This document shows positions 1 through 4,091 of a DNA stretch of 16,682 nucleotides, in pieces. The position numbers were made by a program, and so were the translations under genes. The notes beneath the pieces were generated by a model that saw only the letters and a list, made by a program, of their open reading frames with translations, did not search any database and was not told the origin of the DNA. The stretch spans positions 1 to 16,682 of IMG/VR virus record IMGVR_UViG_2695420653_000007; one strand, 5' to 3'. The number at the start of each line of letters is the position of its first letter. Positions within the stretch are counted from its first letter, which is position 1. The DNA is from a virus. Lineage: Duplodnaviria; Heunggongvirae; Uroviricota; Caudoviricetes.

Positions 1-1248
1 ATGGCACTGAATATTCCATTCAGAAATGCGTACTATCGTTTTGCATCCAGTTACTCATTTCTCTTTTTTATTTCCTGGTCGCTGTGGTGGTCGTTATACG
101 CTATTTGGCTGAAAGGACATCTAGGGTTGACAGGGACGGAATTAGGTACACTTTATTCGGTCAACCAGTTTACCAGCATTCTATTTATGATGTTCTACGG
201 CATCGTTCAGGATAAACTCGGTCTGAAGAAACCGCTCATCTGGTGTATGAGTTTCATCCTGGTCTTGACCGGACCGTTTATGATTTACGTTTATGAACCG
301 TTACTGCAAAGCAATTTTTCTGTAGGTCTAATTCTGGGGGCGCTCTTTTTTGGCCTGGGGTATCTGGCGGGATGCGGTTTGCTTGACAGCTTCACCGAAA
401 AAATGGCGCGAAATTTTCATTTCGAATATGGAACAGCGCGCGCCTGGGGATCTTTTGGCTATGCTATTGGCGCGTTCTTTGCCGGCATATTTTTTAGTAT
501 CAGTCCCCATATCAACTTCTGGTTGGTCTCGCTATTTGGCGCTGTATTTATGATGATCAACATGTGTTTTAAAGATAAGGATCACCAGTGCGTAGCGGCG
601 GATGCGGGAGGGGTAAAAAAAGAGGATTTTATCGCAGTTTTCAAGGATCGAAACTTCTGGGTTTTCGTCATATTTATTGTGGGGACGTGGTCTTTCTATA
701 ACATTTTTGATCAACAACTTTTTCCTGTCTTTTATGCAGGTTTATTCGAATCACACGATGTAGGAACGCGCCTGTATGGTTATCTCAACTCATTCCAGGT
801 GGTACTCGAAGCGCTATGCATGGCGATTATTCCTTTCTTTGTGAATCGGGTAGGGCCAAAAAATGCATTACTTATCGGTGTTGTGATTATGGCGTTGCGT
901 ATCCTTTCCTGCGCGCTGTTCGTTAACCCCTGGATTATTTCATTAGTGAAGCTGTTACATGCTATTGAGGTTCCACTTTGTGTCATATCCGTCTTCAAAT
1001 ACAGCGTGGCAAATTTTGATAAGCGCCTGTCGTCGACGATCTTTCTGATTGGTTTTCAAATTGCCAGTTCGCTTGGGATTGTGCTGCTTTCAACGCCGAC
1101 TGGGATACTCTTTGACCACGCAGGCTACCAGACAGTTTTCTTCGCAATTTCGGGTATTGTCTGCCTGATGTTGCTATTTGGCATTTTCTTCCTGAGTAAA
1201 AAACGCGAGCAAATAGTTATGGAAACGCCTGTACCTTCAGCAATATAG
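1..1248 (+). CDS. MFS transporter, LacY-like oligosaccharide:H+ symporter family (415 aa); probable chromosomal flank of the prophage
   Basis: Full-length ORF in track; strongly hydrophobic multi-helix protein; from memory it aligns along its length with E. coli LacY (DKLGLKKPLIW vs LacY DKLGLRKYLLW; YVYEPLLQSN vs FIFGPLLQYN). Window begins exactly at its ATG, so upstream signals are not visible. Confidence 0.8.
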   Translation: MALNIPFRNAYYRFASSYSFLFFISWSLWWSLYAIWLKGHLGLTGTELGTLYSVNQFTSILFMMFYGIVQDKLGLKKPLIWCMSFILVLTGPFMIYVYEPLLQSNFSVGLILGALFFGLGYLAGCGLLDSFTEKMARNFHFEYGTARAWGSFGYAIGAFFAGIFFSISPHINFWLVSLFGAVFMMINMCFKDKDHQCVAADAGGVKKEDFIAVFKDRNFWVFVIFIVGTWSFYNIFDQQLFPVFYAGLFESHDVGTRLYGYLNSFQVVLEALCMAIIPFFVNRVGPKNALLIGVVIMALRILSCALFVNPWIISLVKLLHAIEVPLCVISVFKYSVANFDKRLSSTIFLIGFQIASSLGIVLLSTPTGILFDHAGYQTVFFAISGIVCLMLLFGIFFLSKKREQIVMETPVPSAI

Positions 1249-1386: not shown

Positions 1387-1563
1387 TCAGATGCGCGGTT
1401 CGCTGATTTCCAAGACATTGTCGTCATTCAGCGACCTGTCCCGTGTATCACGGTCCTGCGAATTCATCAAGGAATGCATTGCGGAGTGAAGTATCGAGTC
1501 ACGCCATATTTCGCTATCAGGATTCTGTGTGATGGTTACATCGCCCGGCCCAGGGCTGTTTAG
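1387..1563 (-). pseudogene. Possible degraded C-terminal remnant of a tyrosine integrase (no start codon, about 58 codons)
   Basis: Minus-strand frame reads ...DSILHSAMHSLMNSQDRDTRDRSLNDDNVLEISEPRI*, which loosely resembles my recollection of the lambda Int C-terminus (HLLGHKSDTMASQYRDDRGREWDKIEIK), with the catalytic Tyr position replaced by Asp. It sits immediately downstream of xis on the same strand, where int is expected. Weak similarity; could be chance. Confidence 0.25.
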
Positions 1564-1776
1564 TCATCAGCGCTTTCTGACAGTGCTGAGATTTCAACCT
1601 GTTGCAGTAAAAATGAGTAGATATAAGGCAAGTGTGCTGCCAAACCTATCTTTTACGGGGTGAAGGTAGATTTCGTTTGAAGGGTATCTGGTGTCCCCTG
1701 CAGACATCTACTTGAAGCGGCAGGGGATTGATTGGAATGGTGTTTTTTAGATGTGAAAAAAATTTTACCCGCTATT

Positions 1777-1977
1777 TTACCCATTGGCGCGGCTTAAGAG
1801 CTTATTTTTGAATTCACAATGGTCACGATATAACCATCTTGCTCGCCCGTGGATAACTTTGGCTTTAGGCAGGTCCCCGGACTTAATCCGGTCATAGATG
1901 AAGGTTTTACCGAAGCCAGTATCGGCCATGATGAATTTCAAATCAACCAGTGAATCAGGCTGTAGTTCGTGTTGCAT
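1777..1977 (-). CDS. xis: Excisionase-like small DNA-binding protein (AlpA/Xis HTH family), 66 aa
   Basis: Track ORF; short basic protein with pattern LVDLKFIMADTGFGKTFIYDRIKSGDLPKAKVIHGRARWLYRDHCEF typical of AlpA/Xis-type HTH excisionases; GGAG about 10 nt upstream of ATG; last gene of the leftward operon, the usual xis position. Confidence 0.7.
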   Translation of the reverse strand: MQHELQPDSLVDLKFIMADTGFGKTFIYDRIKSGDLPKAKVIHGRARWLYRDHCEFKNKLLSRANG

Positions 1978-2102: not shown

Positions 2103-2447
2103 TTAGTCCTTGCGTAGCTCGCTAATTCTTCTGTAAGTCTCTGGTGCTTTGTTTCCGTGTATCTTCATTTCAGACTTCAACAGAGCAACGAGTGAATCCC
2201 ATTCGTTGAGGATTCCTTTGAATGCCGGAACGCGCTTTGCAACCTTGTCGAATGAATCTCTGATTTCTGGAATCTGCTCAACAAGTGCAACGCATCGCCG
2301 GAAATCGGCTGCGTCATGTGGAGCGCCGAAGTGATGACCATAGATATTCTTTTTCAGTCCACATGCGATTGAGGCAAGAGTTGCGCTACTGATGCCGACA
2401 TCGCCAGTCGATTGCCATTTCAAAACCTTCATAGCCAAATCTGACAT
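2103..2447 (-). CDS. Hypothetical prophage protein (114 aa)
   Basis: Track ORF; GGAG 8 nt upstream of ATG; flanked by hairpin terminators on both sides. No family recognised. Confidence 0.6.
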   Translation of the reverse strand: MSDLAMKVLKWQSTGDVGISSATLASIACGLKKNIYGHHFGAPHDAADFRRCVALVEQIPEIRDSFDKVAKRVPAFKGILNEWDSLVALLKSEMKIHGNKAPETYRRISELRKD

Positions 2448-2460
2448 TTCTTGTCTCCAT

Positions 2461-2485
2461 AAAACAAAACTCGCCGTAGCGAGTT
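2461..2485 (-). terminator. Intrinsic terminator A on minus strand (stem AACTCGC/GCGAGTT, loop of 4, then TTTTGTTTT), abutting the RBS of the 114-aa gene
   Basis: Perfect 7-bp inverted repeat followed on the minus strand by a T-rich run; directly seen. Confidence 0.5.
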
Positions 2486-2488
2486 CAG

Positions 2489-2516
2489 ATAAAAGAAAAC
2501 CCGCACTCGGCGGGTT
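2489..2516 (-). terminator. Intrinsic terminator B on minus strand (stem AACCCGC/GCGGGTT, loop of 5, then TTTTCTTTTAT), in tandem with terminator A
   Basis: Perfect 7-bp GC-rich inverted repeat followed on the minus strand by a T-rich tract. Confidence 0.5.
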
Positions 2517-2795
2517 CGCATTCGTTCAAATTGCGTTTACTTCTTGGCGTTCTGTTCATCCATATCGATATACCATGGGTTGCTTCCCTTGGGCATGTTT
2601 AACGACTGCTCGCGATAGTATCTGATGCGCTCCATGAAATACTCGCGTGAGTGCTCAGGTTGCTCTCATGATACCTGCTCAGTGATAACAGGTATGTTAA
2701 GGCGCTCTCTGTACTCCATGCCTGATGCTGCAAGGTCAACGTTTACCTTGTTCTGTTTTTCTTTCGATTTCTCGGCGATGTTATGCCTGACATTG

Positions 2796-3038
2796 TCAAC
2801 CCGCCTCCTTCTGAACATAACGGTTATAAATCAGTCCCTGAGGGCCATAAGGAAGCGGGATGTGCAACTCCTCTGGTTCAGAAACTATCCATTCTCCGGC
2901 CATCTCCGCTGGAGAGGTAATGATAAGTTGTTTGCTAATAAAAGGACCACTCCTCTCAACAACAAGCTTACCATCTTCATTAATAAAAGCTTGGATGTCA
3001 GGTGTGCTTCCACACTTGGTGATGCAGCGTTTGAACAT
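2796..3038 (-). CDS. Hypothetical small protein (about 80 aa, MFKRCITKCGSTPD...), moron-like unit with its own promoter
   Basis: Track ORF 2796..3080, but the upstream ATGs overlap the putative promoter; ATG at 3038 is preceded by a G-rich SD (GGGGGGA). AT-rich region with extended -10 immediately upstream. Confidence 0.5.
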   Translation of the reverse strand: MFKRCITKCGSTPDIQAFINEDGKLVVERSGPFISKQLIITSPAEMAGEWIVSEPEELHIPLPYGPQGLIYNRYVQKEAG

Positions 3039-3068
3039 TTTGTGTCCCCCCATTTTATGTACTGGGTA

Positions 3069-3077
3069 ATTATAACA
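3069..3077 (-). promoter_or_regulatory. Putative extended -10 promoter element (TGtTATAAT on minus strand) in AT-rich intergenic region 3039..3164
   Basis: Minus strand reads TGTTATAAT (plus attataaca at 3069..3077), a perfect TATAAT with upstream TG; -35 not convincing. Confidence 0.35.
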
Positions 3078-3164
3078 CATTGAAATATAGTAATATTTGA
3101 CGTAGATTTCTTTTGATCTATAAGCGATTTTTTAATGCTTTTAAGTTATAAATACTTGTTTTCA

Positions 3165-4091
3165 TCACCCATCTTGCTGCGGTGCTACTATTGAAAAGTG
3201 CTCACACCCTTTATCCCAAATAGTTTTGATAGTTGTCCAACTGACTGGAACCTTGATTTCGATTCTCCCGCTACAGTCACAAGTTTCGCAATCATCATCA
3301 CCAAAGCATTCCGGGCAGCTTATAAACGTAGTTTCTGAAAATTCACCGGATAGCACACCCTTAGCGCCGTTCTCGGCTGTTAGTCTCTTCGGCACCATGA
3401 CCCAACCATCCGGAATTACCGGAGAGTTGCCCGATAGTGCATTCTGCTCCAGTGATGCTTTTACAAACCACGCTGCCTGAACTATAACGCCATGAATCCA
3501 GCGCAAATCAGCATCGCGATCTTTCTTTTTCATCTTTTCGCCACTTAAGGCCTTGCTTATGTGGCTGCGTACCAGGTCTTCATGTAATTCCTTCGCCTCC
3601 TCAATGGTGAAACCACCAGGCAGAAGAGCCGGAGTTACCGGAGAGCTGGTTGACGCTTCCGGGATTTCCCGAAAATTATTGGTTGACGAATTCTTGCTTT
3701 CCCGAAAGTTTCCGGACTGAAGCATGGCGGTGCGGCAGGCGTTCCATATTTCGGCAGCAATATCGCGCTCGCTATCGGTTAATTTGTACGTGGAAACATA
3801 GCCAGAGAGCATTTCTACGTTTTCCGGAGTTGCTTCTTCCGGCACTACCGGCGCTGGCGGGGCGGCAAATAGATATCCGCCAAAGTCAGGAAGCTCTCCA
3901 ATGGCCTGTACGAACTTTTGTTTGCCTACGTCAACTCCTAATGGGTAATGAGCTATAATCTTTGCCACCGGCTCTGCTTCCAGCGATACCAGTGCAATCC
4001 GTGCCACTTCCATTTGTTCGCCACGAGTAAGTCCGTTATCAAGCGGATTTTTAATGAATAATTTGATACGTTCTTTGGTCATAGCGCTCAT
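3165..4091 (-). CDS. Hypothetical prophage early-region protein (308 aa) with C-terminal Cys cluster (CPECFGDDDCETCDCSG)
   Basis: Track ORF; start ATG lies 1 nt after the stop of the upstream Ea22-like gene. No confident family assignment. Confidence 0.65.
   Translation of the reverse strand: MSAMTKERIKLFIKNPLDNGLTRGEQMEVARIALVSLEAEPVAKIIAHYPLGVDVGKQKFVQAIGELPDFGGYLFAAPPAPVVPEEATPENVEMLSGYVSTYKLTDSERDIAAEIWNACRTAMLQSGNFRESKNSSTNNFREIPEASTSSPVTPALLPGGFTIEEAKELHEDLVRSHISKALSGEKMKKKDRDADLRWIHGVIVQAAWFVKASLEQNALSGNSPVIPDGWVMVPKRLTAENGAKGVLSGEFSETTFISCPECFGDDDCETCDCSGRIEIKVPVSWTTIKTIWDKGCEHFSIVAPQQDG

Follow-up and report, generated by a model that had tools for sequence, protein, structure and literature searches.

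Genetic organization of the locus

The 16,682-nt stretch of DNA analyzed here, referred to below as the window, covers the early region of an E. coli lambdoid prophage with mosaic structure; the left end of the window is host DNA encoding an oligosaccharide/sucrose MFS transporter (positions 1..1248, plus strand). Along the minus strand, a torI-type excisionase (xis) gene and a gene for a 114-aa protein flank the cassette under study on one side, while Ea22-like, anti-RecBCD, SSB and Rad52-type early-left genes lie beyond it on the other. The cassette is located at the xis-proximal end of the early-left transcription unit, with which it shares its orientation, and is composed of an upstream non-coding region, a gene for an 80-aa protein, the remains of a second gene and two terminator hairpins (Table 1). 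Two ORFs on the plus strand run antisense to the cassette, at positions 2625..3083 (152 aa) and 2392..2625 (77 aa); these have no PHROG match, are absent from the PGAP annotation and were dismissed as shadow ORFs.

Table 1. Features of the cassette and of its xis-proximal neighbors in the window
Feature	Coordinates	Strand	Details
torI-type excisionase (xis) gene	1777..1977	minus	
114-aa gene	2103..2447	minus	between torI-type gene and cassette
Intrinsic terminator T2 (predicted)	2458..2486	minus	hairpin 2486..2467, 8 pairs plus T-run, -11.9 kcal/mol
Intrinsic terminator T1 (predicted)	2488..2517	minus	hairpin 2517..2497, 8 pairs plus T-run, -12.0 kcal/mol
DNA polymerase III theta/phage P1 Hot-like pseudogene	2537..2818	minus	PF06440
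TGA replacing Arg CGA	2666..2668	minus	codon 51 of 93-codon frame, equivalent to Arg43 of 85-aa relatives
16-codon ORF with original theta SD and start	2743..2810	minus	SD AAGGAGG 2810..2804; original ATG 2793..2791
1-nt deletion in theta codon 4	2784..2785	minus	
80-aa protein gene	2796..3038	minus	PGAP CDS; WP_000476264.1; phrog_9613
G-run Shine-Dalgarno of 80-aa gene	3046..3051	minus	six G
Predicted transcription start	3060..3063	minus	6-9 nt downstream of -10 hexamer
Extended -10 TGTGtTATAAT (putative promoter)	3069..3079	minus	without recognizable -35
Conserved box AATCTACGTCA	3098..3108	minus	about -46..-36 relative to predicted transcription start
Operator-like inverted repeat TAGAT-N8-ATCTA	3103..3120	minus	upstream of promoter; putative protein-binding site

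A small prophage gene family under purifying selection

The first-pass annotation of this DNA had favored the ATG at position 3038, with its G-rich Shine-Dalgarno (SD) sequence, as the start of the 80-aa ORF. This choice agrees with the PGAP call, with the starts of divergent homologues, which align to this ATG as MF in five of six cases and as ML in the sixth, and with those copies in which the G-run contains seven residues, where an upstream ATG falls out of frame while the 80-aa ORF is left unharmed; ATG 3038 is, therefore, the true start of the gene. The G-run itself differs between copies, comprising 6 G, 7 G or GGGGAG.

The encoded protein is a member of phrog_9613 (E=2.6e-50), to which no function is assigned in that resource, and it has no match in Pfam or NCBIfam. 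PADLOC profiles returned no match to the protein or its neighbors at E<=0.1, on which basis membership of an anti-phage defense system was rejected. The family to which it belongs, consisting of prophage proteins of 74-80 aa from E. coli and Pectobacterium, is very small and previously uncharacterized: 12 clusters were retrieved among 5.8 billion proteins and 11 matches among 1.84 billion representatives, which came from E. coli, Pectobacterium carotovorum and a small number of unassigned contigs, and no member was encountered among the GTDB species representatives. Homologues from Pectobacterium and other contigs are 74-79 aa in length and share the conserved core M-F-x-x-C ... A-F-x-N-E-D-G-x-L-V-V-E-R ... 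P-x-E-M-A-G-E-W ... Y-G-P-Q-G-L-I-Y. Based on an AlphaFold2 prediction from seven sequences (pLDDT 83, pTM 0.74), which is all-beta with six strands, the 80-aa protein models as a small beta-barrel-like protein.

Comparison of the family members yielded dN/dS ratios of 0.14-0.6 for the 80-aa gene, synonymous sites in divergent pairs being saturated or nearly so (pS 0.67-0.93), and of the 38 copies in which the full unit was available, 37 retain an intact ORF. Judged by these substitution patterns, the 80-aa ORF is genuinely a gene and is subject to purifying selection.

The downstream tail is a degenerate theta/Hot-like gene

The approximately 280 bp downstream of the 80-aa gene had been described as structured non-coding sequence which contained no ORF above 32 codons and which could represent either a small RNA or a decayed gene. 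The statement regarding ORFs does not hold, as a 50-codon ATG ORF (2818..2666) and a 46-codon TTG ORF (2739..2599) cross the region, and it is the decayed gene that the evidence bears out. When positions 2818..2537 are read in a single frame, a 93-codon theta-like ORF interrupted by one TGA is obtained, the translation of which is MFRRRRVDNVRHNIAEKSKEKQNKVNVDLAASGMEYRERLNIPVITEQVS*EQPEHSREYFMERIRYYREQSLNMPKGSNPWYIDMDEQNAKK*. With the stop read as Arg, this product matches PF06440 with 100.9 bits against a cutoff of 34.6 (E=3.1e-29) and the structure of the phage P1 Hot protein (PDB 1se7) with E=2.7e-29; PHROG 1105 and NCBIfam PRK10969 are likewise matched, and identity to P1 Hot is approximately 70% over residues 13-83 or 13-85. 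In the RefSeq/PGAP annotation of complete E. coli genomes which carry the region at 98-100% identity, 2818..2537 is labeled “DNA polymerase III subunit theta” and recorded as a pseudogene with an internal stop. Hot is described, in PMC2528190 and in PMC7556043 (the latter citing Chikova and Schaaper 2005, 2007), as a protein expressed in P1 lysogens which substitutes for theta and stabilizes the epsilon proofreading subunit.

Intact relatives of the pseudogene specify proteins of 85 aa with the N-terminus MSGHNIAEKS and are often encountered in the nin region of lambdoid prophages from E. coli, Klebsiella, Citrobacter and Salmonella, whereas the copy in the window occupies an early-left, xis-proximal position. 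These relatives constitute the intact longer ORF in homologous prophages which the first-pass annotation had itself named as an outcome that would speak against its reading. P1 Hot and the intact relatives are uninterrupted, unlike the window copy, which carries a frameshift after codon 3 in addition to the in-frame TGA and in which no continuous theta ORF of approximately 76-85 codons with its own start is present. At the frameshift, the intact genes L009 and L012 read ATGTCAGGTCATAAC, specifying MSGHN, as opposed to ATGTCAGGC-ATAAC in the window. As a consequence of this deletion in codon 4, the original SD and ATG are out of the theta frame and open the 16-codon ORF, whose preceding AAGGAGG had been correctly recognized as a strong SD. 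The theta frame can now be entered only from the ATG at 2818, which lacks an SD and lies within the 80-aa gene. Decay would have begun with the codon-4 deletion, uncoupling SD and ATG from the gene, and the change of CGA to TGA would subsequently have truncated the frame that remained.

The copies fetched with the full unit (n=38, corresponding to 24 distinct DNA sequences) allowed these lesions to be followed. The codon-4 deletion is common to all 39 sampled copies that are readable at the site. Most copies also carry TGA, CGA being kept in L007, L008, L037 and L049, and among the 90 complete E. coli genomes with the region, 72 show no difference across the 61 nt around the TGA. Further lesions have arisen independently, namely a GAG to TAG change in the codon after the TGA (L018 and L056), a 1-nt deletion of C near the 3' end (L007, L008 and L049), a 2-nt deletion (L044 and L092), an ATG to AGG change at the original start (L006) and an 11-nt deletion of the SD in P0122, a protein record matching an 840-nt hit (H56). 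The theta frame is open in one of the 38 copies, L037, where all 93 codons can be read from the upstream ATG, and the codon-4 deletion alone may thus not be fully inactivating. Considering these independent additional lesions, and a theta frame open in 1/38 copies against an intact 80-aa ORF in 37/38, the lesion pattern is that of a gene released from selection and not that of recoding.

Two other explanations of the tail were weighed against decay. According to one, the 280 bp would constitute a structured small RNA or a cis-regulatory RNA, for which the best Rfam match, a weak similarity to rsmX, can be adduced; this match, however, scores 24.2 bits, where the gathering score is 56 (E=0.052), and falls mostly over the terminators, and the scan of the tail against Rfam produced nothing near a gathering score. 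The predicted fold does not merit the term “structured”, since its minimum free energy of -67 kcal/mol compares with -59.9 +/- 4.8 kcal/mol for shuffled sequences (z=-1.49), 14 of 200 of which fold as well. Furthermore, the entire stretch aligns codon by codon to theta/Hot genes, and frameshifts and deletions are scattered through it in sister copies. An RNA role for the tail is consequently regarded as very improbable, and the candidate small RNA or riboswitch was rejected. Equally hard to credit is the proposal that theta remains functional, whether through read-through of the TGA, through a -1 shift from the 16-codon ORF or as an active 50-aa N-terminal modulator of epsilon. It may be argued in its favor that no other allele is as common as the TGA form, which has also reached another context (the nin region in L016), that the frame of the 16-codon ORF stands at -1 relative to that of theta, with the A-rich run AAAGAAAAAC inside this ORF, and that Hot, as noted above, is reported to replace theta in P1 lysogens. 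Against this stand the independent lesions listed above, which include a TAG beside the TGA, 1-nt and 2-nt deletions and loss of the SD, as well as the absence of a canonical X XXY YYZ slippery heptamer and of a SECIS match. Truncation after residue 50 would presumably also remove the third helix of the theta/Hot fold. P0001, an apparent revertant with Trp at the stop, was discarded as a gene-calling artifact that probably stems from a TGA=Trp code: the contig sequence reads TGA at this position, and translation of the gene does not reproduce the query.

The cassette contains no small RNA and is largely ordinary. Recognition of the tail as an already annotated pseudogene removes a false lead, and illustrates how a decayed gene can mimic the combination of an SD, a mini-ORF and a structured tail.

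Tandem terminators shared with theta remnants of Gifsy prophages

The two tandem intrinsic terminators that had been reported at the end of the cassette were recovered as predicted hairpins of approximately -12 kcal/mol each. T1 is also located 3' of the theta remnant in Gifsy-2, while T2 is common to Gifsy-1 and Gifsy-2; in many Stx and lambdoid phages, T2 additionally precedes genes of the phrog_1229 type. The occurrence of T1-T2 after the theta remnants of Gifsy-1 and Gifsy-2 indicates that the tandem terminators travel with the theta cassette, of which they would represent the native 3' end. The Gifsy elements resemble the window in possessing the same T1-T2 and the same theta 3' end (86% identity) and in having undergone theta decay in a prophage. 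They differ in the cause of the decay, an internal deletion in the Gifsy copy, which is moreover situated upstream of dinI in the nin region and has no 80-aa gene before it. Such repeated decay of prophage theta/Hot homologues, in the E. coli lineage, Gifsy-1 and Gifsy-2, bears on the question of whether they confer a benefit on prophage or host.

Conserved promoter elements upstream of the 80-aa gene

A perfect extended -10 element had been noted on the minus strand within an AT-rich region, and both observations were reproduced: TGTTATAAT is present at 3077..3069 as the sole motif of this type in the window, and positions 3000..3224, with a GC content of 0.31-0.33, form the only strongly AT-rich gap of the neighborhood. 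By itself, the element is within chance expectation (one match against 0.64 expected per window, and at least one in 91 of 200 shuffles), and it was not reported by a two-hexamer promoter scan because it lacks a -35 hexamer. Its significance derives instead from conservation across species.

Every divergent relative examined possesses a non-coding gap of 126-600 bp upstream of the gene and, although synonymous sites are randomized, two blocks persist within these gaps. One of these, TGTGnTAT(a/g)AT, ends approximately 30 nt before the ATG and takes the form TGTGTTATGAT, TGTGGTATGAT, TGTGATATATT or TGTGTTATGCT in relatives with saturated synonymous sites. The other is the box, (A)ATCTACGTC, the core of which (CTACGTC) is invariant across seven aligned relatives, and which is kept as AATCTACGTC 19-20 nt upstream of TGTGnTAT in all four distant relatives checked; measured from its 3' end to the TG of the extended -10, the distance is 20 nt, or 19 nt in L024. 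The spacing among the box, the TGTG extension, the TATAAT-like hexamer and the ATG is constant across relatives. When the combined pattern box-N18-20-TGTGnTATnAT was used to scan IMG/VR, 34 loci were retrieved, 29 of which correspond to the cassette and five to one unrelated contig family, which indicates that the promoter architecture is specific to the 80-aa gene family. In this family the promoter elements, that is the extended -10 and the spaced box, are better conserved than the coding sequence, and its members are on this account candidates for regulated, lysogen-expressed accessory genes.

The window harbors a single exact copy of the box, inside aTAGATcaaaagaaATCTAcgtca, and further matches in the window with up to two mismatches are not above chance. 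Pectobacterium-type relatives (L021-L023, L026 and L027), on the other hand, carry two copies of the box in direct repeat, at a period of 21 nt, and before them a TAGATT that is inverted to AATCTA. The resulting arrangement, TAGATT-N6-AATCTA, parallels the operator-like inverted repeat of the window. It is proposed that the box and the inverted repeat form the site for a regulator, which the box probably binds, and the presence of such an element upstream of the promoter suggests that expression is regulated and not constitutive. We know of no E. coli regulator whose consensus site convincingly matches the box. A divergent plus-strand promoter overlying the box (TTGAAA-17-TAGATT by scan, TTGACG-16-TATAAG by eye) was also considered and set aside, as it is not conserved in the Pectobacterium-type relatives.

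A composite accessory cassette with moron-like architecture

Morons, which were defined for HK97 and HK022 and of which bor and lom of lambda are examples, are promoter-gene-terminator units located between conserved genes (reviewed in PMC7067206). The cassette described here displays, at the level of sequence, a promoter of its own (3079..3069, at fixed spacing in relatives with 45-70% protein identity), terminators of its own (T1 and T2, both within the window) and independent insertion, its relatives being located near xis/int or in the nin region. With lambdoid morons it shares a sigma-70-type promoter element, a short accessory gene, intrinsic terminators and assortment independent of its neighbors. 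It departs from them in being composite in this lineage, where a second, dead gene separates the payload gene from the terminators, and in having a promoter with a conserved upstream box, which suggests regulation over constitutive expression. As regards base composition, the GC content of the coding part is 0.44-0.50 versus 0.45-0.53 in the flanks, and the promoter gap alone is AT-rich (0.31-0.33). The conserved extended -10 and box spacing, the hairpins adjacent to the gene and the differing contexts support the interpretation of an autonomous, probably regulated promoter-gene-terminator unit, i.e., a moron. The promoter-gene-terminator moron put forward in the first-pass annotation accordingly survives as far as its architecture is concerned, which is recovered in four relatives (45-52% protein identity), but not with respect to its structured non-coding tail. 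Overall, we consider it quite probable that the region is a composite accessory cassette made up of an extended -10 promoter with the 80-aa gene, a dead theta/Hot-like gene and tandem terminators.

Of 5426 complete E. coli genomes, 88-90 (~1.6%) carry the cassette, which was not encountered in any record of the isolated-phage collection. E. coli strains 1223 and PM7 are examples of lysogens that contain it, and in E. coli IAI1, which also does, an IS3 element lies immediately behind the pseudogene. The upstream neighbor of the cassette varies by genome, being DUF550, DUF551, Ea22-like or DnaJ-like, and its contexts comprise the xis-proximal position (the window and Pectobacterium), the nin region (L015/L094 and L024) and a site beside an oppositely oriented gene (L022). 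A hairpin with a T-run directly follows the gene of the 80-aa family in L021, L026 and L027, and a weaker hairpin does so in L024.

The origin of the composite may be approached through L094, in which the small protein is approximately 70% identical to that of the window and is also followed by a theta-like gene. The latter has retained its MSGH start but displays an in-frame loss of EQPEH and a divergent, shortened C-terminus, giving a total of 64 aa, and it is separated from the gene for the small protein by a spacer containing a TATAAT-bearing leader of the kind that precedes intact nin-region theta genes (L009 and L012). The 3'-terminal codons of the 80-aa ORF (YNRYVQKEAG) align to this theta leader in the lineage of the window. 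Together with the L094 arrangement, this alignment suggests a deletion by which the moron gene became joined to a theta cassette, theta and T1-T2 thereby taking the place of the moron's own terminator.

A more ambitious view of the same adjacency, which is seen in two lineages (the window type and L094), is that the 80-aa protein and the theta/Hot-like protein once formed a functional two-gene cassette under a regulator-controlled promoter, the small protein, which selection still maintains, acting on the host replisome or proofreading complex or being induced by a host signal via the box. Given that the theta partner is degenerate in both lineages and that the Pectobacterium-type relatives have no theta, we regard this as a decidedly long shot. 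Somewhat less remote, though still unlikely, is the possibility that the unit has no independent promoter and is transcribed with the N-antiterminated early-left operon, the upstream block serving some other purpose, such as a recombination boundary or a protein-binding site that has no part in initiation. The cassette is indeed oriented in the same manner as the flanking early-left genes, no terminator separates it from the upstream 308-aa gene, the -10 motif is of a kind expected at the chance frequency given above and L092, a 94% relative, has CG in place of the TG dinucleotide before TATAAT. What this explanation does not readily accommodate is the preservation of the hexamer, the TGTG and the box at fixed distances from each other and from the ATG, despite saturated synonymous sites and unrelated contexts.

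Under the favored reading, that of a regulated moron fused to a decayed theta cassette, the 80-aa gene would be driven by a sigma-70 extended -10 promoter without a -35 element. A repressed prophage would produce a transcript of approximately 0.6 kb, comprising the 80-aa coding sequence and the untranslated theta remnant and ending at T1/T2, which would now terminate this composite transcript and may additionally keep transcription from the moron promoter out of the 114-aa gene and xis/torI. In the lytic cycle, the entire unit would be expected to be traversed by antiterminated early-left transcription.

Degenerate theta-like genes and their recombination

In addition to the lineage represented by the window, an adjacent gene pair was observed in the relative locus L094, in which a theta-like gene comes after a gene related to the 80-aa gene at 70% identity; genes of the 80-aa and theta types therefore stand next to each other in two lineages. 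The theta-like gene of L094 retains an intact MSGH start, but the conserved EQPEH motif is missing from it and its reading frame stops prematurely, after 64 aa. The theta partner is degenerate in both lineages which possess the gene pair.

The relative locus L016 harbors a recombinant in a nin region, in which the 80-aa gene contributes its final 25 codons, fused to the N-terminus of a 55-aa ORF (MHFRVTGEWNGE...). The theta copy which follows this fusion ORF carries the frameshift and TGA of the window type, and its 3′ end now derives from an intact theta gene of the nin type. As the recombinant carries a frameshifted, TGA-containing theta gene, it is the dead allele which is being moved around by recombination. 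In E. coli IAI1, the IS3-family element ISSen4 is located directly 3′ of the theta pseudogene, and a search of 420 nt beginning at the theta start did not recover the tandem terminators T1 and T2.

A metagenome protein record (P0001, locus L006) reads Trp at the site of the theta TGA, where the contig DNA itself has TGA, evidently owing to a gene caller's use of a code in which TGA specifies Trp, and represents a caution for inferring "intact" variants from protein databases.

Prophage Gifsy-2 also contains what is left of a theta/Hot-like gene, which is not annotated there; an internal deletion joins the N-terminal NIAAKSQEDRDKV to the C-terminal ...EQNTKK*. Tandem T1-T2 terminators as in the window stand 3′ of this remnant, and the LexA-box promoter of dinI is located just downstream of it. 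The same stretch is covered in Gifsy-1 (hit H116), at the level of a DNA match only.

Among intact nin-region theta genes, a TATAAT located approximately 35 nt 5′ of the ATG is conserved and may constitute a promoter of their own. The window counterpart of this TATAAT in the alignment is TTTATAAC, which has become the coding sequence for residues IYN in the 80-aa protein.

Start codon and upstream region of the 80-aa gene

The G-run of the Shine-Dalgarno sequence comprises six G, seven G or GGGGAG, depending on the copy (L051, L054, and L062). In copies with seven G, the upstream ATG at 3053, which is otherwise in frame, falls out of frame, as does the longer 94-aa reading from 3080, which again favors 3038 as the start.

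The conserved operator-like sequence is not known to fit any E. coli regulator consensus. The string AATCTACGTC-N19-TGTGTTATGAT is common to five metagenome-derived viral contigs (L031, L033, L041, L046, and L061), the surrounding sequence being unrelated; in these contigs, no ORF of at least 40 aa begins within 70 nt downstream of the string, which is probably a chance match inside one phage lineage.

The upstream 308-aa Ea22-like gene (phrog_60) of the window bears a Cys-rich CPECFGDDDCETCDCSG motif at its end. In some genomes, the neighbor occupying this position bears the name "molecular chaperone DnaJ" or DUF550/DUF551, and such differences among genomes illustrate the variability of the upstream slot.

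Coordinates of the features discussed
Feature	Location	Strand	Sequence
Conserved operator-like sequence	window 3098..3120	minus	TAGAT-N8-ATCTACGTCA
Operator-like sequence, Pectobacterium prophages	L021 about 3900..3945		direct repeats of AATCTACGTC, 21-nt period
Shine-Dalgarno G-run	window 3046..3051
Ea22-like gene	window 3165..4091	minus
Sequence aligned to TATAAT	window 2823..2830	minus	TTTATAAC
TATAAT, intact theta genes	L009 about 2965..2975; L012 about 1070..1080		TATAAT
Relative of 80-aa gene	L094 1501..1740
Theta-like gene	L094 1802..1996
nin-region recombinant	L016 3001..3400
Region with theta pseudogene and ISSen4, E. coli IAI1	L028 (NC_011741.1) 2235..3346
Theta/Hot-like remnant, Gifsy-2	L029 (NC_010393.1) 1440..1600
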